Source: Mustelus asterias
Lineage: Eukaryota
DNA: 64,000 nucleotides
Direction of reading: 5' to 3'
NCBI RefSeq assembly: GCF_964213995.1
Contig: NC_135812.1
Coordinates: 66,588,001-66,652,000 of the forward strand
In this document: positions 39,950 to 54,338 of the stretch, in pieces
How the letters are laid out: every line of letters starts with the position of its first letter
Position numbering within the stretch: the stretch's first letter is position 1
Program-made: the position numbers and the translations under genes
The notes under the pieces: generated by a model
Databases searched by the model: none
Seen by the model: only the letters and a program-made list of their open reading frames with translations
Told to the model about the DNA's origin: nothing

Positions 39950-40300
39950 TTATAGAGTCCGGACAGTGCAGAATGCGACGATACGGTCCATCGGGTCTGT
40001 GCCAACTCTTCGAAAGAGCATCTTACCCAGGCTCACCCGCCCACCACACCGCCCTATACCTGTAACCGCATGCATTTACCATGACTAATCCACCTAAACT
40101 ATATATCTTTTCGACACTAAAGGGCAATTTAGCATGCCCAATCCACCTAACCTGCACATCTCTGCAGGAGGAAACCAGAGCACTGGGAGGAAACCCATGC
40201 AAACATGGGGAGAACGTACAAACTCCACACAGTCACCAAGGCCAGAATTGAACCCGGGTCCCTGGCGCTGTGAGGCAACAATGGTAATCACTGTGCCACC
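39950..40300 (-). mobile_element. V-SINE (duplicated at ~62731-63065)
   Basis: Reverse-complement V-core and head gaattgaacccgggtccctggcgctgtgaggc. Confidence 0.8.
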
Positions 40301-43365: not shown

Positions 43366-44265
43366 CACGCAAGTTCCCTTTATCGTGAACCAAAGGAAAA
43401 ATCAATTTCTGCGGCTTACAGTCTGGTAGTCTTCACCTTGGAACCTACAACTAGTTTCAGGCTTAAGAACCCCTGCTCACTGCTTCCCATTGGGCGAGCC
43501 TCCACTCGCTCAATAAGGCAGCTCCACAAAGCCCTCGGTCTATTAATGATCCTCCAAGGCCTTTGTGGCCATCATAACTTTCCTCCACCTTAGGTCCCTG
43601 TTTCTCACAGCACCTCCACTGCGAGGATGTCCTTTTTGGTGCTTGGTGCTCGAGCGGATGTCCGTTGAAGGCAGGGCTGGGCCAGGTGACTTATATCGAA
43701 CAGGGGACCTTCTACTTTGGTGGAAATGTCTTGGAGTTACTGAAGCAGGTTCCTCCTCAAGTTCTGCTTCAACACGGAAGTCTGTTTCTTCAGCCTCCAT
43801 CTCAGAGTCTGTAACTTTGCTATCTGGAGGGACCAACGTGGAGTCAGTTTCAAGCTGAGGACTGGCACTGATAGCGGCTACCTCCATGGCCGGTGGAAGG
43901 GCGCTTCGGGCAAGGATTCCCTGGCCCTGAGGTGATCCAAGTACCCTGAACTTTGACTTTGTAAAATACTGGTCCGGTTTGTTCCATAATGATCCCAGGG
44001 ACTCATGTTTCTTACATGAATCAGATCACCTGTTGCAAACGTTCTTTCTGCCCTTGTGGAATTGAAGTTTCTTTTTTTGGTTTTCCTGTTGGGACTCCAC
44101 CTTCCCTGCCAAATTCTGAATAATAGAGTAAATCTGGTACAAAGCCATTGTCCCACCAACATCTATGCTGGAGCAACACCTGTTGTGGTGTGCGGTGTGG
44201 TCTTTAATTGAGCAATAATTGTGCCAGTTTAGTCTCCCTGGATGCCACCGGTGTTTCTTCATACC

Positions 44266-44595
44266 TGATGCGCGTTATCACACACGAGGCTTGAAATGCT
44301 CAAGGAAATAATGGCTTTATTTACTATTACAACGAAGCTACCATGTATAGTACACGATCCCAGACTGAGGGGTCCCAGACAGAGCAGTGATCTTTATACC
44401 TCTCCCAGGAGGCGGAGCCCGACTGGGATGTACCATAATAACTATAATACAGGTGTAACAGCCCAACCCTAACCCCAACAGCAACAAGTAGAACAACCCA
44501 TCCCTAACCCCAACAGCAACATATATACATACTCGTAGTACTGGCCAGACCCTGGCTCAGTACTACCTAGTGGGAACCAACGATGGTTCACCACA
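44266..44595 (-). repeat. 3' LTR of the gypsy element
   Basis: Direct repeat of 48711-49041, adjacent to the PPT. Confidence 0.95.
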
Positions 44596-44657
44596 TTCAC
44601 CCCTCCTTTGAAGACAGGCCGGCGGGGTACAAAAAAATAGAATAATTTGTCATCAGT

Positions 44658-47600
44658 CTATAAGTTCAGACGGTCAGGGGGACCGCACCGTCGTGACATC
44701 CTCAACACCGGTGATAACACCGGAGTAGGCACTCGCGGTGGCGTTCTCCTCAAGGCGATGTCCAACGGTTCCTCCACAGTCTCACGGGCCGGCTGACCCC
44801 GAGGTGATGATAATCCGTTGAGTTCCGACACGCCCTGAAGTGGTGACCATCTCCTGGACTCAGGCAAGCTGTACACGGGAGTAAAAGGGTTAAGTAATGG
44901 TCCCGATGCTGCCCGCGTCGTGTCAGGAAGAGAAACAATAGTTGGGGGGTCTCTAACAGGAGGTATGGGAGCGACAGGGGTTTCTACGTCCCCTGCTGGC
45001 GCCAGGTCTCGAATCGAGACCGTGTCCTCTCGCCCGTTAGGGTATGCCACATAGGCATACTGAGGGTTGGCGTGGAGGAGATGGACCTGTTCGACCAACG
45101 GGTCGGACTTGCAGGCCCTTACATGTCGCCGCAGGAGGACAGGTCCTGAGTACGTCAACCAAGACGGTAATGAGGTCCCAGAGGAAGACTTCCGAGGGAA
45201 TGAAAACAGCCTCTCATGAGGAGTAGCGTTGGTTGCCGTACACAGGAGTGAGCGTATGGAATAGAGCGCATCAGGGAGCACCTCTTGCCAACGGGAGACT
45301 GGAAGGCTTTTTGACTTCAACGCCAGTAAGACAGCCTTCCAGACTGTAGCATTCTCACGTTCCACCTGTCCGTTACCCCTAGGGTTGTAGCTCGTGGTTC
45401 TACTAGAGGCAATCCCGTATGAGAGCAGGTATTGCCTCAAGTCATCGCTCATGAACGATGAGCCCCTATCGCTGTGAATGTAGCAGGGGTACCCGAACAG
45501 AGTAAAAAGATCACGGAATGCCATGATAACCGTGGCAGCGGATGTATCAGAGCAGGGAATAACAAAAGGGAATCTCGAGTACTCATCAATGATGTTGAGG
45601 AAGTACACATTCCGATCTGTTGAGAGAAGGGGGCCCTTAAAGTCGACACTCAGTCTTTCGAAGGGACGAGTGGCCTTGACTAGTTGTGCCCGGTCAGGTC
45701 GGTAAAAGTGCGGTTTGCATTCCGTGCATACCCGACAACTTCTCGTTATGGACCTGACATCCTCCACCGAGTAGGGCAGATTGAGGGCTTTTACGAAGTG
45801 GTAGAGCCGAGTGACCCCAGGATGGCATAGGTCATTATGGAGAGCCTGCAAACGGTCCTCCTGTATACTGGCGCATGTTCCACGCGACAGGGCATCCGAG
45901 GGCTCCTTGAGTTTCCCTGGACGATACATGATGTCGTAATTATAGGTGGAGAGTTCGATTCTCCACCTCAAGATCTTGTCGTTCTTGATCTTGCCCCGCA
46001 GCGTGTTATTGAACATGAACGCCACGGACCGCTGGTCCGTGATCAGGGTGAACCGTTTTCCCGCCAAGTAATGGCTCCAATGCCTGACGGCCTCCACAAT
46101 GGCTTGGGCCTCCTTTTCCACCACTGAATGTCGAATTTCGGGGCCTTGGAGGGTGCGGGAAAAAAAGGCGACGGGCCTGCCCGCCTGGTTAAGTGTGGCG
46201 GCCAGGGCGAAATCAGATGCATCGCTCTCCACCTGAAAGGGGATGGACTCATCAACAGCGTGCATCGTGGCTTTCGCGATGTCGGCTTTTAGTTTATCAA
46301 AGGCCAATCGAGCCTCTGGTGTTAGGGGAAAAGAGGTGGACTTGATGAGCGGACGGGCTTTGTCCGCGTAATTGGGAACCCACTGTGCGTAGTAAGAGAA
46401 GAAGCCTAAGTATCTTCTCAGTGCTTTTGCGCTAGTGGGCAGGGGAAGTTCAAGGAGGGGACGCATACGGTCTGGATCAGGGCCAATGACCCCGTTTTCC
46501 ACCACGTATCCGAGGATGGCTAAACGACGCGTACGAAATACACACTTCTCCCTGTTGTAGGTCAGATTCAGGCGAGATGCAGTGCGTAGGAACTTAAGGA
46601 GATTTGTGTCGTGGTCCTGTTGGTCATGGCCGCAGATGGTGACGTTATCCAGGTACGGGAAGGTAGCCCGCAGTCCGTTCTGGTCCACCATTCGGTCCAT
46701 AGCACGCTGGAAGACCGAGACCCCATTGGTGACACCAAAAGGAACACTGAGAATGTGATACAAGCAACCATCCGCCTCAAAAGCCGTGTATTGTCGGTCC
46801 TCTGGGCGAATGGGGAGTTGGTGGTAGGCAGACTTGAGGTCTATGGTGGAGACCACCCGGTACTGCGCAATCTGGTTGACCATGTCAGATATGCGCGGGA
46901 GGGGATACGCATCCAGCTGCGTGTATCTATTAATGGTCTGACTATAGTCAATGACCATCCGGGGTTTGTTCCCACTCTTGACCACCACGACCTGCGCTCT
47001 CCATGGACTAGCGCTAGATTGTATGGTCCCTTCCTTGAGGAGCCGCTGAACTTCAGATCGAATGAAGATCCGATCCTCAGCGCTGTAACGCCTACTCTTA
47101 GTCGCGATGGGCTTGCAGCCTGGCACAAGATTCTGGAACAGGGAGGGTGTGGTAATCTTCAGCGTCGAGAGGCTACAGGCGGGGTGCGTTGGGCAATTTG
47201 GAAGCTGCTGTTCTCCCACTGAAAGCGGAGGGAGTGGCCCACCGTACTGTAGGGTTACACTCTTCAAGTGGACCATGAAATTTAGTCCGAGGAGTATTGG
47301 CGCGCAAAGGTGTGGTAACACCAGGAGCTTGAAGTGCTCGTAAACCGTGCCCTGCACCGTTAAATTTACCATGCAACTCCCTAGCACGGTGACAGACCGG
47401 GACCTTGATGCCATCGAAATCGTCTGTTTGACAGGTTGGATCTGGAGGCCACACTGCTTCACAGCGTCTGGGTGAATAAAACTCTCCGTGCTCCCGCTGT
47501 CAAACAGACAATAAATCAAGTGTTTGTTTACCTGAATGTCCATCATAGACTTGTCGAGTCTGTGAGGCTTGGCCTGGTCCAGGATGATCGACACCACCGT

Positions 47601-48650
47601 TGGTTCGTGAGCACCACTGCAGGCAGCTGAGATAGATGAAGATGACCCCTGCTGGTCGTTCGCGGTCGGTGCTGACCAATATGGCTGCTCCCATAGGTCG
47701 CACGTGGGTGATGGCGCCAAAATCAGCGACCCCTGGTGGTCGCGCATCTCTTGCGACTCCGTCGACTGTAATGGCGACGTCCTGGCCTCGCACGTGGACG
47801 AAACCCTCGACGATACCGACGACGAAGAACCGGGCTCCGGGGAGTTACAGGCCGCACTGCTGTTCCTGGAAGTAAGTTTGGATCGGCATACCTTCGAATA
47901 GTGCCCCTTCTTACCGCAGGCGGAGCACAACACAGCTTTAGCGGGACATCGCTGCCGAGAGTGCTTCACTCCCCCACAGAAGTAACACCGCGGGCCGCCC
48001 GGAGCTGCTGCCGTCGTCAGGCCCGTGTGTGGGCATGCCATCACGCAGCTTTTCGAACCCGAGGGACGAGGAGGGATCAGCGACTGCTCCTGCCACGTTG
48101 TCTTCACGTGGTCTTCGGGATACAATACTAGGCTTTTGGAGGCCGTCTCCAACGTATCCGCTAGTTCTATCGACTTAGTGAGATCAAGATTACCTTGCTC
48201 CAACAGTCTGAGTCGGATATAAGATGATCCGATTCCCGCCACAAACGCATCTCGAGCGAGGTCGTTCATGTTCTGGTCTGCCGACACTGCTTTGCAGTTA
48301 CAGCCCCTGGCTAGCTGTAGGAGCTCGTTCGCGTACTCTTCCGTCGTTTCGCCGGGCTGCCGTTGTCGAGTGGCTAAGAGGTATCGAGCATGCATCTCGT
48401 TTGGCGGTTTAATGTAATGCTTCTTAAGAAGCTCGAGGGCCCTTGTGTAGTTGGTGGCCGCACGGATCGCGAGATATACGGTGTCGCTTACCCTCGTGTG
48501 GAGGACCCGGAGTCTGTCGTCGTCTGTGGTGACCGCTGCGGAGGCTGCAAGGTAGTCCTCAAAACATTTCAACCAGTGGTCGAAGGTGTTAGAGGCGCCC
48601 GCCGCACGTGGATCCAGTGTAAGACGTTCGGGTTTTAACATTTGCTCCAT
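44658..48650 (-). CDS. Gag-Pol polyprotein, 1330 aa, uninterrupted (Gag with two zinc knuckles, protease, RT, RNase H, integrase)
   Basis: CYFCGGVKHSRQRC and CSACGKKGHYSKVC; protease LFDSGS; RT IDLKSAYHQ, PFGV, YLDN; RNase H ESDAS, EKEA, TDQ, DALSR; integrase H-H-CRVC, VDF, HSDRG, GQVEREN. Confidence 0.95.
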   Translation of the reverse strand: MEQMLKPERLTLDPRAAGASNTFDHWLKCFEDYLAASAAVTTDDDRLRVLHTRVSDTVYLAIRAATNYTRALELLKKHYIKPPNEMHARYLLATRQRQPGETTEEYANELLQLARGCNCKAVSADQNMNDLARDAFVAGIGSSYIRLRLLEQGNLDLTKSIELADTLETASKSLVLYPEDHVKTTWQEQSLIPPRPSGSKSCVMACPHTGLTTAAAPGGPRCYFCGGVKHSRQRCPAKAVLCSACGKKGHYSKVCRSKLTSRNSSAACNSPEPGSSSSVSSRVSSTCEARTSPLQSTESQEMRDHQGSLILAPSPTCDLWEQPYWSAPTANDQQGSSSSISAACSGAHEPTVVSIILDQAKPHRLDKSMMDIQVNKHLIYCLFDSGSTESFIHPDAVKQCGLQIQPVKQTISMASRSRSVTVLGSCMVNLTVQGTVYEHFKLLVLPHLCAPILLGLNFMVHLKSVTLQYGGPLPPLSVGEQQLPNCPTHPACSLSTLKITTPSLFQNLVPGCKPIATKSRRYSAEDRIFIRSEVQRLLKEGTIQSSASPWRAQVVVVKSGNKPRMVIDYSQTINRYTQLDAYPLPRISDMVNQIAQYRVVSTIDLKSAYHQLPIRPEDRQYTAFEADGCLYHILSVPFGVTNGVSVFQRAMDRMVDQNGLRATFPYLDNVTICGHDQQDHDTNLLKFLRTASRLNLTYNREKCVFRTRRLAILGYVVENGVIGPDPDRMRPLLELPLPTSAKALRRYLGFFSYYAQWVPNYADKARPLIKSTSFPLTPEARLAFDKLKADIAKATMHAVDESIPFQVESDASDFALAATLNQAGRPVAFFSRTLQGPEIRHSVVEKEAQAIVEAVRHWSHYLAGKRFTLITDQRSVAFMFNNTLRGKIKNDKILRWRIELSTYNYDIMYRPGKLKEPSDALSRGTCASIQEDRLQALHNDLCHPGVTRLYHFVKALNLPYSVEDVRSITRSCRVCTECKPHFYRPDRAQLVKATRPFERLSVDFKGPLLSTDRNVYFLNIIDEYSRFPFVIPCSDTSAATVIMAFRDLFTLFGYPCYIHSDRGSSFMSDDLRQYLLSYGIASSRTTSYNPRGNGQVERENATVWKAVLLALKSKSLPVSRWQEVLPDALYSIRSLLCTATNATPHERLFSFPRKSSSGTSLPSWLTYSGPVLLRRHVRACKSDPLVEQVHLLHANPQYAYVAYPNGREDTVSIRDLAPAGDVETPVAPIPPVRDPPTIVSLPDTTRAASGPLLNPFTPVYSLPESRRWSPLQGVSELNGLSSPRGQPARETVEEPLDIALRRTPPRVPTPVLSPVLRMSRRCGPPDRLNL

Positions 48651-48710
48651 ACTCTATGTATCGTTTTCTTTTTTTTTAACGACGAGAGTTTAATTAATAG
48701 TAAATAAAAT

Positions 48711-49041
48711 TGATGCGCGTTATCACACACGAGGCTTGAGATGCTCAAGGAAATAAAGGCTTTTATTTACTATTACAACGAAGCTACCATGTATAGTACA
48801 CGATCCCAGACTGAGGGGTCCCAGACAGAGCAGTGACCTTTATACCTCTCCCAGGAGGCGGAGCCCGACTGGGATGTACCATAATAACTATAATACAGGT
48901 GTAACAGCCCAACCCTAACCCCAACAGCAACAAGTAGAACAACCCATCCCTGACCCCAACAGCAACATATATACATACTCGTAGTACTGGCCAGACCATG
49001 GCTCAGTACTACCTAGTGGGAACCAACGATGGTTCACCACA
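48711..49041 (-). repeat. 5' LTR of the gypsy element (GC box, TATAAA 48844-48839, Inr TCAGTC 48814-48809, AATAAA 48767-48762)
   Basis: Motifs read on the minus strand, with canonical ~30-nt TATA-to-Inr spacing. Confidence 0.92.
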
Positions 49042-50886
49042 ATACCATATTTGAAGGTTTGATCCGTCTGTTCTGCCAATCCATTTGACGACGGGTGATA
49101 TGGTGCAGTCCGGACATGTCAGATACCATTGGAGAGCATGAAGTTCTGGAATTCACCGTTCATGAAGGCCATGCCATTATCTGAAACCAGGAAGGACTTC
49201 CAGTGTCCCACGTGTGCAACAGCTTTGCTGCAATTTCTCAATCGTAGCCTGAGCAGTTATGTGGAGCTCATGCGATGCACCTCCAACCACATGCACTGTG
49301 CGTCCACCATGATTAAAACCACAGAACCTGCAGAGGGACCTGAAAAGTCTGCATGTACTCACACCCTTGGCCTGCCAGTACACCTCCATGGATGTTGGCA
49401 GCCCTAGGGTGGTCGATTCAAATCTTAAAGGCACAAGTCACATTGCTTTACCAAGTCTATGCTGTTGGAAACAAGACCAGGACACCGAATGGGTGGCCAT
49501 TATGTGCTTCCTTTAATGTTGGACATCATCCAGGGGGCGGAACAATTACTTGAACCCCCAAAGGACGATTCCATCTCCCACATTAAGTTTGGACTCCTTG
49601 GTGAGGTAGGGTTTCATTTCTTCGGAGGGTCATTTTTGGAATCCCCCATGTAGGATCATGTGCCTAATTTTGGATAAGGTTGGGTCTTCTTAGGTCCAGG
49701 CTTTGATCTGCCTTGCTGACACTGTCAAGGTCTCCATAAAGTTCAGGGTTATCACAACTTTTTCTATTGCTGGTAAGGGAGCCAGGCCTCTGGGCAACGG
49801 GAGGCAACTCAGTCCGTCCGCATTAGCTATCCGGGTTCTGGGATGGTGTTCTAGAGTATGCTCGTAGGCTGCCGATAACAAGCCCAGTGCTGGATCCAAG
49901 TGGAGGTGAAAAGGTGAATGGCTTTGTCCTCTTTGAAGAGGCCCAGTCAGTGTTAATGGTCGGCAAATTTAGAAAACCGTCGACTGTAGACCTATTGATG
50001 GAATTTCTTCACATCAAATATGACCGGCAATCCTTCTTTCTCATTTTGTGAATATTATTGCTTTGCATCCGAAAGGGTCCTGGAGGCATACGCGATGGGC
50101 TTCTCCGTCCTTTCATTCCTGCCATGTGACAGCACTGCAACAACCCTGGACAGGGAAGTTTCACAGGTCATAATAAGTTCCTTCTTTCGAGTCAAAATGG
50201 GCCAGTAAGTTGAATGACAATAACTGACCTGAAAAAAAGCCTCTGCTGTGAAGCTCCCCAAGGCCATCTGTGATATTTTTGTAGAAGGGCGTGCAAGGGG
50301 GGTAAGCATGGGAAGCCAAATTTGGGATTAATTTTCTGCAATAGTTGACTAACCCGAGGAAGCATTTTAGCTCTGTGGTGTTCCTTGGGGTTGGTGCCTC
50401 CTTGATGGCCTTTACTTTATCCTTTACTGGATGTAACCCCTTGCCATCTACTCAGCAACTTAAATAGTTTACGTTGGCCGTTTGGAAAATGCATTTCTCT
50501 CTCTTCATGCGGACTCCTGCCCTGAAAAATCGTTGCAGGACTTCTTCTAGTTTGGTCAGGTGTTCCTGTTAACAAGCCACTGTGACCAAGACGTCATCTA
50601 AATATACTGCTACCCTGGGTAGCCCTTGAAGGATGTTCTCTATAACGGTCTGGAAGATGGCATAAGCCAAGGAGACACCAAAAGGCAAACTAGTATACCC
50701 ATAGAGTCCCTTATATGTGTTAATTGTCACACATTTCAAAGAAGACTTGTCGAGTTCAAGATGGAGATAGGCGTGGCTCATATCCAAATTGGAGAATGTT
50801 TGCCACTTGTTAACTTGGTGTACAGATCTTCGATCCGGGGCATAGGGTAACTATCGAGTTTGGAGACCCAACTGACTGTCTGTTTA

Positions 50887-51218
50887 TAGAATCATAGAAT
50901 CCCTACAGTGCAGAAGGAGGCCATTTGGCCCATCGAGTCTGCACCAAACACAATCCCACCCAGGCCCTGTCCCCATAACCCCATGCACTTACCCTAGCTA
51001 GTCCCCTTGACACTAAGGACCAATTTAGCATGGCCAATCCACCGAACCCACACATCTTTGGACTGTGGGAGGAAACTGGAGCGCCTGGAGAAAACCCACG
51101 CAGATACGGGGAGAATGTGCAAACTCCACTCAGGCAGTGAGTGTCCCAAGTCGGGAATCAAACCTGGGTCTCTGGCGCTGTGTTAGCAGTATGAACCACT
51201 GTGCCACCATGCCGCCCC
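50887..51218 (-). mobile_element. V-SINE inserted in the old gypsy RT
   Basis: Full SINE; the host reading RLC(GD)/YKQTV resumes on either side. Confidence 0.88.
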
Positions 51219-51953: not shown

Positions 51954-53592
51954 AGCGCATCCCTGAAAAATCTTTCTTTGTCATCTTTGTCTGTTAGCTG
52001 TCTTGATAATGACTCTGGGAATAAAAATGCTGCACAGAAAAATCCAATGAAATTAGATTGTGAAAAAATGTAGGAAGGAGAATCCATTAGAATGGTGCAC
52101 ATGAAATTGTTGCAATCAAGAAATTGCCATATCTTTATTATACTGTTGAAACTAAGGGGTGGAAATTATTCTGGATCCAAATGAGCTCAACTGGGAGGCC
52201 CAGCATTAAAACCAGCCTCAAAGAACAAAGAAAATTACAGCACAGGAACAGGCCCTTCGGCCCTCCAAGCCTGCACCGACCATGCGGCCTGATGTAATTA
52301 AAACCCCCTACGCTTCCAGGGACCATAACCCTCTATTCCCATCCTATTCATGTACTTGGCAAGATGCCCCTTAAAAGTCACTACCGTATCCGCTTCCACT
52401 ACCTCCCCCGGCAATGGGTTCCAGGCACCCACTACTCTCTGTGTAAAAAATCTACCTTGTACATCTCCTTTAAACCTTGCCCCTCGCACCTTAAACCTAT
52501 CAGGTCTCAGTAAGATTTTTTTTGGCATGAGCTGCCAACACCTGCGTTGCCTCGACAGATAACTCCCTCATTTGAGGATGCTGATTGCTGGGTCACCGAT
52601 TTCAAGTGCAGCAGACCTGGAAGTCGTTCTGAGGAGCAGTATGAGAGAAGGCAGGACAACCGTGGAGTCAAAAGGAGACTTCTGTTCTTCCTGGCTCTCC
52701 ACGAGATTTGCTGAATAATGTTTTATTAAAATGCCTTACCTTTTATTATTGGCTGCTATTACTGAAGAACCCTGACCAGGACAGGCTTATTGATTACAAG
52801 AACAGAGGAAACCGGCTTACTGATAAACCTGCTTAGCTCTTCTTTAAATTATGAGAACAGACTGGGAAAACTCTAATGTGAAGTTGCTGAACTGAAGAGG
52901 GATAAATTCCATGAGATCATAGAATCATAGTATCCCTGCGGTGCACAAGGAGGCCATTCGGCCCATCAAGCCTGCACTGACAGCAATCCCACCCAGGCCC
53001 TATCCCCGTAACCGGTTCATCCCCCTGACATTAAGGGGCAATTTAGCATGGCCAATCAACCTAACCCACACATCTTTGGGGTTGGAAAGGAAACTGGCTC
53101 AAGTAGACTGGAAATAAAGATTGGGAGGCAAAATAATAAACAGAATGACAGAACACTACAAACCAATCAGATGGTTCAGTTACACACTAGACCCACTGCT
53201 CGGAGGGAGATAGGAATGGGACCTAAAGCTTGAGTTCCTTTTATGATTAATGAAATAGAGATTTAAGTGAAACAGGAAACCATGATATATGTCAGGTTCA
53301 TCATTCAGTAGAGATTGAAGCTGATTACAGAAAGTTCAGATGAGAACTGAGAAAGCAAATAAGAGGGGCAAAGAGATTGCATGAGAAAAGAGTAGGGGTA
53401 ACATACAAAGGAATCGTAAACTCTTCTATAAACATATCAAGCATAAAAGCACAATCAAAGGAAAGTTGGGGCCTTCTCTCATACTGCTCCTCAGAACGAC
53501 TTCCAGGTCCGCAGCACTTGAAATCAGTGACCCAGCAATCAGCATCCTCAAATGAGGGAGTTACCTGTCGAGGCAACGCAGGTGTTGGGGCC

Positions 53593-54338
53593 CAATAAAT
53601 GGAAAAAATTTACAACATTCTGCTGTGCAAAGGGACCTAGGGGTCCTTGTGCATGAGTCGCAAAAACTCAGTCTGCAAGTACAACAGGTGATCAAGAAGG
53701 CAAATGGGATGTTGGCATTTATCGCGAGGGGGATAGAATATAAAAGCAGAGAAGTCTTGCTGCATCTGTACAAGGCATTGGTGAGGCCGCAGCTGGAATA
53801 CTGTGTGCAGTTTTGGTCCCCTTACTTGCGAAAGGATATATTGGCCTTGGAGGGAGTGCAGAGAAGGTTCACCAGGTTGATACCGGAGATGAGGCGTGTA
53901 GATTATGAGGAGAGATTGAGCAGATTAGGTTTGTACTCGTTGGAGTTTAGAAGGTGATCTTATAGAGGCATATAAGATAATGAAGGGGCTGGATAGGGTA
54001 GAAGTGGAGAGATTCTTTCCACTTAGAAACCAGAACTAGAGGGCACAGCCTCAAAATAAAGGGGGGTCAGTTTAGGACAGAGTTGAGGAGGAACTTCTTC
54101 TTTCAGAGGGTGGTGAATCTCTGGAATTCTCTGCCCACTGAAGTGGTGGAGGCTACCTTGTTGAATATGTTTAAGTCACGGATAGATGGCTTTCTGATCG
54201 GTAGGGGAATTAAGGGTTATGGGGAGCAGGCGGGTAAGTGGAACTGATTCACTTCAGATCAGCCATGATCTTATTGAATGGCGGGGCAGGCTCGAGGGGC
54301 TAGATGGCCTACTCCTGCTCCTATTTCTTATGGTCTTA
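53593..54338 (+). mobile_element. 5'-truncated CR1 inserted into an older CR1 remnant (~53290-54720)
   Basis: QRDLGVLVH...LVRPQLEYCVQFWSPY, tail tcttatggtcttat. Flanks retain older CR1 text (aaatactttgcatttgtcttt; aaatcacccggtccagatgggatacatc). Confidence 0.88.

Follow-up and report, generated by a model that had tools for sequence, protein, structure and literature searches.

A Ty3/gypsy lineage with a primer-binding site complementary to its own LTR poly(A) signal: candidate self-priming and palindromic LTR insertions

Results

An intact Ty3/gypsy element pairs its PBS with its own LTR

The window (the whole 64,000-nucleotide stretch of Mustelus asterias DNA analyzed here) contains an intact Ty3/gypsy element on its minus strand, and the feature under study sits at the 5′ end of this element (Table 1). 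TG...CA LTRs, a TSD, a PPT, and the domain order PR-RT-RH-IN place it in Ty3/gypsy, and the best PDB match of its protein was Ty3 Gag-Pol (E 3e-59). Both of the Gag zinc knuckles named in the original prediction were present (CX2CX4HX4C), and Pfam gave no Chromo match in the element, including the integrase C terminus, where a chromodomain had been said to be lacking. Between the two LTRs there are 5 substitutions and 1 deletion (6 positions in all), and the A-run after the hexamer is shorter by one A in the 3′ LTR. Many family copies ~99% identical were found in the 3.68-Gb host genome (40 scored of 2971 candidates); the element is a young, multicopy Ty3/gypsy. An Rfam search across the element returned no match. 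It is surrounded by a decayed integrase-like Gypsy remnant (window 49042-49400; ORF 49099-49407), and repeat copies that we take to be SINE- or LINE-like lie nearby (window 40079-40183, 50886-51079, 52919-53097, and 53556-53957).

Table 1. Features of the element in the window and related palindromic insertions elsewhere in the genome
Feature	Position or locus	Strand	Basis or remark
TSD, upstream copy (5 bp, GGTAT)	49042..49046	.	
5′ LTR (331 nt, TG...CA)	48711..49041	-	
TATA box (TATAAA)	48839..48844	-	kept across clade families in this genome
Inr (TCAGT), predicted transcription start 48812	48810..48814	-	motif spacing behind TATA, 31-34 nt in 12/14 representatives
Predicted 37-nt leader with predicted hairpin, upstream of primer segment	48776..48812	-	RNA fold
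PBS-complementary segment, candidate self-primer (AATAAA 48767-48762; predicted cut after 48761)	48761..48775	-	
Loop, remaining R plus U5 (predicted stems 48749-48735 and 48730-48715)	48711..48760	-	RNA fold
Spacer between LTR end and PBS, single base A	48710	-	one base in 23/23 anchored representatives
Putative primer-binding site (15 nt, without TGG, complement of 48775-48761)	48695..48709	-	
Single ORF Gag-PR-RT(YLDN)-RNase H-IN (1330 aa, without env)	44658..48650	-	
Polypurine tract	44596..44609	-	
3′ LTR (330 nt)	44266..44595	-	no PBS behind its hexamer to pair with
TSD, downstream copy	44261..44265	.	
Palindromic LTR-only insertions	L031, L033, L046, L049, L053, L064, L069, L078, L090, L091, L095, L212, L415, L427		395-614 bp; 12/14 with exact 5-bp TSDs

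The 5′ LTR is followed by one A and then by a 15-nt stretch (48709-48695) with exact reverse complementarity to an LTR segment that contains AATAAA (48775-48761), just as originally described. This match is not expected by chance, since none of 5000 dinucleotide shuffles of the LTR gave a complement of at least 13 nt (best, 12 nt); across sampled window positions, 7 of 5086 had a complement of at least 15 nt. The predicted geometry also held: with only base 48710 between LTR and PBS, the 3′ end of the paired LTR segment would come to lie 1 nt from the LTR edge. When the predicted transcript (48812-48650) was folded, the duplex was recovered with central pair probabilities of 0.70 to 1.0, together with a leader hairpin and two stems in the 51-nt loop, namely, the 6-bp CTTGAG/CTCAAG stem that had been anticipated and a second stem in U5. 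The fold is more stable than expected (z = −2.6; 3 of 200 shuffles equally stable).

No TGG PBS was seen in the window copy or in its clade relatives, whose possession of one would have spoken against the original prediction. The best match of the PBS in a tRNA screen was 9 nt and internal (72 tRNA genes covering 7 anticodon classes only).

PBS and LTR segment covary from single copies to distant families

To ask whether PBS and LTR segment change together, as the original prediction implied, we compared copies at increasing distance. Among 30 near-identical copies, one (L026) had both strands of one duplex pair changed, a double compensatory change. PBS variants of this type occur in 110 genomic copies, and 91 of these junctions were examined. 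The 75 normal variant junctions comprised 67 with the compensating LTR base, 6 with a G-U pair, and 2 that had lost the partner by deletion, so that 67/73 junctions with an intact partner were compensated and 6/73 wobble paired. In 120 LTR haplotypes, a biased sample, paired sites were linked with r2 values of 0.77 and 0.87, and one two-site class was missing. Linkage along the LTR in these haplotypes gave no strand-transfer breakpoint, the signal being dominated by subfamily structure. Across three contig runs, one complementary allele pair, unphased, was seen at the paired positions 48702/48768 in contigs from another organism, and no strand-changing joint was seen.

Further families in this genome were recruited with Gag queries from other species. 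A perfect duplex of at least 10 bp was found at 60 of 90 own-genome loci, and 30 of 90 did not reach 10 bp. A metagenome scan yielded 80 loci at 32-44% Gag identity, a redundant set of ~14 families by inspection; 57 of the 78 testable loci had a duplex of at least 11 bp versus 1 of 68 in a control window shifted into gag, and 11/78 had no duplex of 8 bp. Some of the duplex-less loci in both sets were visibly decayed or interrupted.

We then aligned representatives (28 hand-picked loci selected for a duplex of at least 9 bp, of which 23 could be anchored). Over the six positions 5′ of the hexamer, the LTR segment matched its own PBS at 5.87/6 positions versus 2.06/6 for the PBS of other families. 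The hexamer itself was AATAAA in 20, ATTAAA in 2, and TGTAAA in 1 of the anchored representatives. Loop length ranged from 21 to 57 nt, yet the spacer was constantly one base, giving the same register in all anchored families: LTR CA, one base, PBS. As a control, 18 copies of two other Gypsy lineages were examined; the 13 in which the LTR end was captured had TGG near that end and an LTR complement of only 5 to 8 nt. The feature is therefore real and conserved across the clade by compensation, from single copies to families at 32-44% Gag identity. Since the PBS follows its own LTR in nearly every family, it cannot match a fixed host tRNA.

The clade lacks a chromodomain and is separate from two other Gypsy lineages of the genome

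Among 120 homologs listed, the closest named were from rays and sharks (74-86% identity in RT-RNase H), followed by Trichuris, Trichinella, Actinostola, Apostichopus, and Styela (58-63%). None of the 120 had a Chromo domain among its precomputed domains. The RT motif was YLDN in 78/128 proteins. In an RT tree of 38 rows, 33 relatives were separated with support of 100/99 from two further Gypsy lineages of the genome, represented by five copies, with no Tf1/sushi reference among the rows and with 12 of 34 chosen loci omitted for want of an RT stretch; L158, L172, and L210 were on long, uncertain branches. A Chromo search of this genome gave 17 loci, none with Pol nearby and hence no usable Tf1/sushi element, and an SH3_Tf2-1 search gave weak matches only. 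No relatives were found in viral contigs. The parasitic nematodes Trichinella and Trichuris carry clade members at 58-59% RT-RNase H identity, like the marine invertebrate members. Another young Gypsy family of the same genome (L368-L381) has ORFs of up to ~2000 aa and a TGG-type PBS.

Conserved promoter motifs predict a transcript that begins upstream of the duplex

The original prediction put the transcription start near 48812, with the paired segment ~37 nt inside the transcript, and motif conservation supports this placement. In the window copy, 32 nt separate TATAAA (48844) from the Inr A (48812), as described. In 12 of 14 representatives of this genome, TATAAA and the TCAGT Inr were 31 to 34 nt apart; the distance from Inr to duplex was 36 to 41 nt in 11 representatives and 61 nt in one, in which TATA and Inr were shifted together. 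Visual inspection of the metagenome families revealed no such TATA-Inr pattern. Given a conserved TATA-Inr pair 36 to 61 nt upstream of the duplex, transcription likely starts at 48812 and the primer segment likely lies inside the transcript, unlike that of Tf1.

Predicted pairing between leader and U3 was stronger than in shuffles (P ≤ 0.01) in 5 of 12 representatives (L101, L122, L285, L299, and L325) and not significant in the window family (P = 0.2). Where it occurs, such pairing may link both ends of the RNA or fold the 3′ LTR.

Palindromic LTR insertions are joined at the duplex

Among the 91 variant junctions, 14 were fold-back junctions, in which the PBS is followed not by the 5′ UTR but by the reverse complement of the LTR (position 281 to 1). 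These counts cover the examined loci only, and the resulting rate of ~15% reflects a single variant class, not the genome as a whole. Twelve of the 14 were complete palindromes of 578 to 614 bp with a U3 end on each side, consisting of a whole LTR and an inverted U3-R joined at the duplex; in L218, the element with the fold-back junction is cut short. Ten of these 12 palindromes of the window family were flanked by exact 5-bp TSDs, all different. In a second family (Gag 59% identical), 2 of 30 junctions were palindromes (395-399 bp), both with 5-bp TSDs. A junction search in the L285 family found none, and likewise missed that family's own locus. At L055 (1441-1778), a solo LTR of a subfamily 82% identical, with a 5-bp TSD, carries an internal 23-nt insertion connecting LTR position 281 with the inverted end of U5, a junction identical to that of the palindromes. 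Locus L098 (G000:C23:59802200-59804200) has two copies in opposite orientation, one of which ends after 843 nt and is joined to a second LTR and PBS.

Direct TSDs indicate that the palindromes formed before integration rather than by later inversion of an integrated copy, and their several subfamily backgrounds indicate that they arose repeatedly. Rare alleles were common to both arms in 7 of 12 palindromes, so the arms were mostly copied from one template. In L031 and L212, however, the arms carry different alleles at common polymorphic sites, a sign that some events may have been intermolecular. Polymorphic differences between arms within the leader fell mostly at CpG sites. In LTR elements, the end of plus strong-stop DNA is copied from the primer, and for this reason the palindromes support a primer with the sequence of the LTR partner. 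They are likely integrated fold-back strong-stop DNA and would thus be a genomic readout of a reverse-transcription intermediate. For Tf1, one study describes a cDNA 3′ end that keeps a single-stranded PBS copy (PMC11042837). The palindromes fit either LTR copy as the source of the primer. They also resemble nonautonomous DNA transposons with long inverted ends and could be misannotated as such.

Discussion

Our data argue strongly that this clade self-primes in some form. RNA cleavage, priming, and poly(A) masking by the duplex are what we infer from sequence. In the account that we favor, which we hold to be moderately probable, the primer is the internal poly(A)-signal segment of the 5′ LTR after an RNA cut predicted behind the A-run, ~52 nt inside the transcript as predicted from 48812. 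The duplex would form during transcription and conceal the 5′ AAUAAA. By analogy with Tf1, RT/RNase H would then cut at the duplex end, behind the A-run, so that the 3′ end of the primer would come to lie one base away from the edge of the LTR. Minus strong-stop DNA of ~51 nt would transfer via the part of R that separates the hexamer from the poly(A) site, and plus strong-stop DNA would copy the retained primer, rewriting the PBS from the LTR segment; such rewriting would explain why covariation comes easily. Alternatively, the plus-strand 3′ end would anneal to the same segment in the plus-strand LTR and be extended as far as the end of U3; a pair of such strands would then yield a palindrome with two U3 ends to be inserted by integrase. 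Several points count against this account. The cut would be internal here, whereas Tf1 uses RNA bases 1 to 11 (PMC7175516). Unless the leader were trimmed or blocked, plus-strand synthesis on a 52-nt primer would run 37 nt beyond the 15-nt PBS. Families with a 21-nt loop keep only ~20 nt for strand transfer. The duplex-less loci, the metagenome families without an evident TATA-Inr pattern, and the lack of a strand-transfer breakpoint in the LTR linkage also weigh against it.

The overshoot and the short transfer overlap would be no difficulty if the 3′ LTR copy, near the RNA 3′ end, paired with the PBS and primed, its tail behind the A-run being cut or trimmed to the duplex, the genome circularized, and minus strong-stop DNA folding back onto the adjacent 3′ R. 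Sequence, register, and covariation are identical under this alternative and under 5′ priming; the 37-nt overshoot is avoided, a long R overlap is available for transfer even in 21-nt-loop families, and a cut tied to the poly(A) signal would be natural at a 3′ end. However, only 51 nt separate the 5′ copy from the PBS, and this copy is transcribed first and has a pairing probability near 1, whereas the 3′ copy is 4.4 kb off; Tf1, the only demonstrated precedent, uses the 5′ copy. LTR linkage favored neither copy. We therefore regard 3′ priming as unlikely. Ordinary Tf1-type self-priming, with transcription starting at or near 48775 so that the segment is the RNA 5′ end, seems to us less likely still. 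The start at 48812 is predicted from motifs, a TATATAA lies ~22 nt upstream of the segment in some subfamilies, and Tf2 uses alternative starts (PMC5341516). Against this, TATATAA is missing in the window copy and in the other families inspected, and the 31-34 nt between TATAAA and TCAGT is held while the surroundings diverge, the two motifs moving together where the leader is 61 nt.

The duplex might instead serve only to hide the 5′ poly(A) signal, with the primer supplied by some other RNA, for example a small RNA or a fragment of a tRNA. The near-constant presence of AATAAA or ATTAAA in the paired segment would suit such a role, and the tRNA screen was narrow (see above for its coverage). 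Masking, however, would work without any fixed one-base register relative to the end of the LTR; the site varies nearly family by family and tracks its own LTR, which a fixed host RNA cannot follow; TSD-flanked palindromes require a preintegration plus-strand end that reads the partner's complement; and the best tRNA match was short and internal. We give masking alone little credence. As for chance complementarity or a local inverted duplication in the window copy, 13 of the 15 paired bases are A+T, but the shuffles, the TGG controls without a complement, and compensation throughout the clade (in representatives and metagenome relatives alike) led us to reject it, and we assign it virtually no weight.

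Priming by an LTR-derived segment, as proposed here, has relatives elsewhere. Tf1/Tf2 of Schizosaccharomyces pombe and Tj1 of S. japonicus are likewise Ty3/gypsy elements without a tRNA PBS, in which the PBS complements a segment of the element's own LTR, a U5 stem stands beside the PBS, and a PBS copy remains at the plus-strand 3′ end (PMC7175516, PMC4600332, PMC10085805, PMC11042837). Tf1 RT/RNase H is reported to cut between RNA bases 11 and 12 (PMC7175516), so that bases 1 to 11 are the primer; the segment in our clade is 12 to 18 nt long, is predicted to lie 36 to 61 nt inside, and has its end at the poly(A) hexamer. Unlike Tf1/sushi chromoviruses, the clade has no chromodomain, a single spacer base, and an RT motif that is mostly YLDN. 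The third duplex of the Tf1 "pretzel," a pairing of PBS-downstream sequence with the loop, was absent in the window copy (best, −5.5 kcal/mol). Given the missing chromodomain, the missing third pretzel duplex, and a primer that is likely internal, the element likely works like Tf1 without being assignable to Tf1/sushi. Self-priming has also been predicted, from PBS-LTR complementarity of at least 10 bp, for Tcn1 (Ty3/gypsy) and the plant elements TAR/Houba/Osr-1 (Ty1/copia) (PMC6317226); these belong to other lineages and hosts than the window clade. Ty3 has a bipartite PBS (PMC1635307), and in a similar way an extension of the primer that pairs with the 3′ LTR could bridge two RNA ends in our clade; a difference is that Ty3 uses a tRNA.

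The predicted masking has a counterpart as well, as the duplex base-pairs the 5′ LTR AAUAAA of the window element. In retroviruses, the 5′ poly(A) signal can be occluded by RNA structure, as in the HIV-1 poly(A) hairpin. Here, unlike in HIV-1, the signal pairs with the PBS, which lies beyond the LTR, and masking can therefore affect only the 5′ copy of the signal.

To our knowledge, fission-yeast Tf1 is the only element for which self-priming has been demonstrated, and the primer is generally held to be required at the very 5′ end of the RNA. Repbase entries reportedly call some marine-invertebrate Gypsy families self-priming. In the portions of the literature consulted (including PMC3601003, PMC2836005, and PMC13524379), we found no account of this clade's priming or of such palindromes. 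The broadest reading of our data is that the clade, spanning cartilaginous fishes, nematodes, sea anemones, echinoderms, and tunicates, is large and old and evolved self-priming independently of Tf1, that one duplex both hides the 5′ poly(A) signal and cuts out an internal primer, possibly from the RNA 3′ end, and that the clade routinely sheds palindromic LTR integrants that record the primer junction. Our judgment on this combined reading is evenly poised. If true, tRNA-free priming would have been solved a second time, by a poly(A)-linked internal primer in a separate animal lineage that is widespread. Such elements would be independent of tRNA supply and of silencing by 3′ tRNA fragments, and they would account for Gypsy elements that annotation tools report without a PBS.

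Two further features were seen around the hexamer and the spacer. Most families have GCCT or ACCT behind the hexamer (L131, L132, L136, L154, L157, L176, L184, and L187; window 48760-48757), a possible cleavage determinant; in many metagenome families, though not in the window family, this motif and a downstream AGG close a hairpin. In a metagenome family with a 21-nt loop (L136, L141-L147, L150, L153, and L155), the spacer base is any of the four letters among close copies, and where it is C it complements the base behind the hexamer, as though the copied primer had been cut one base too long.
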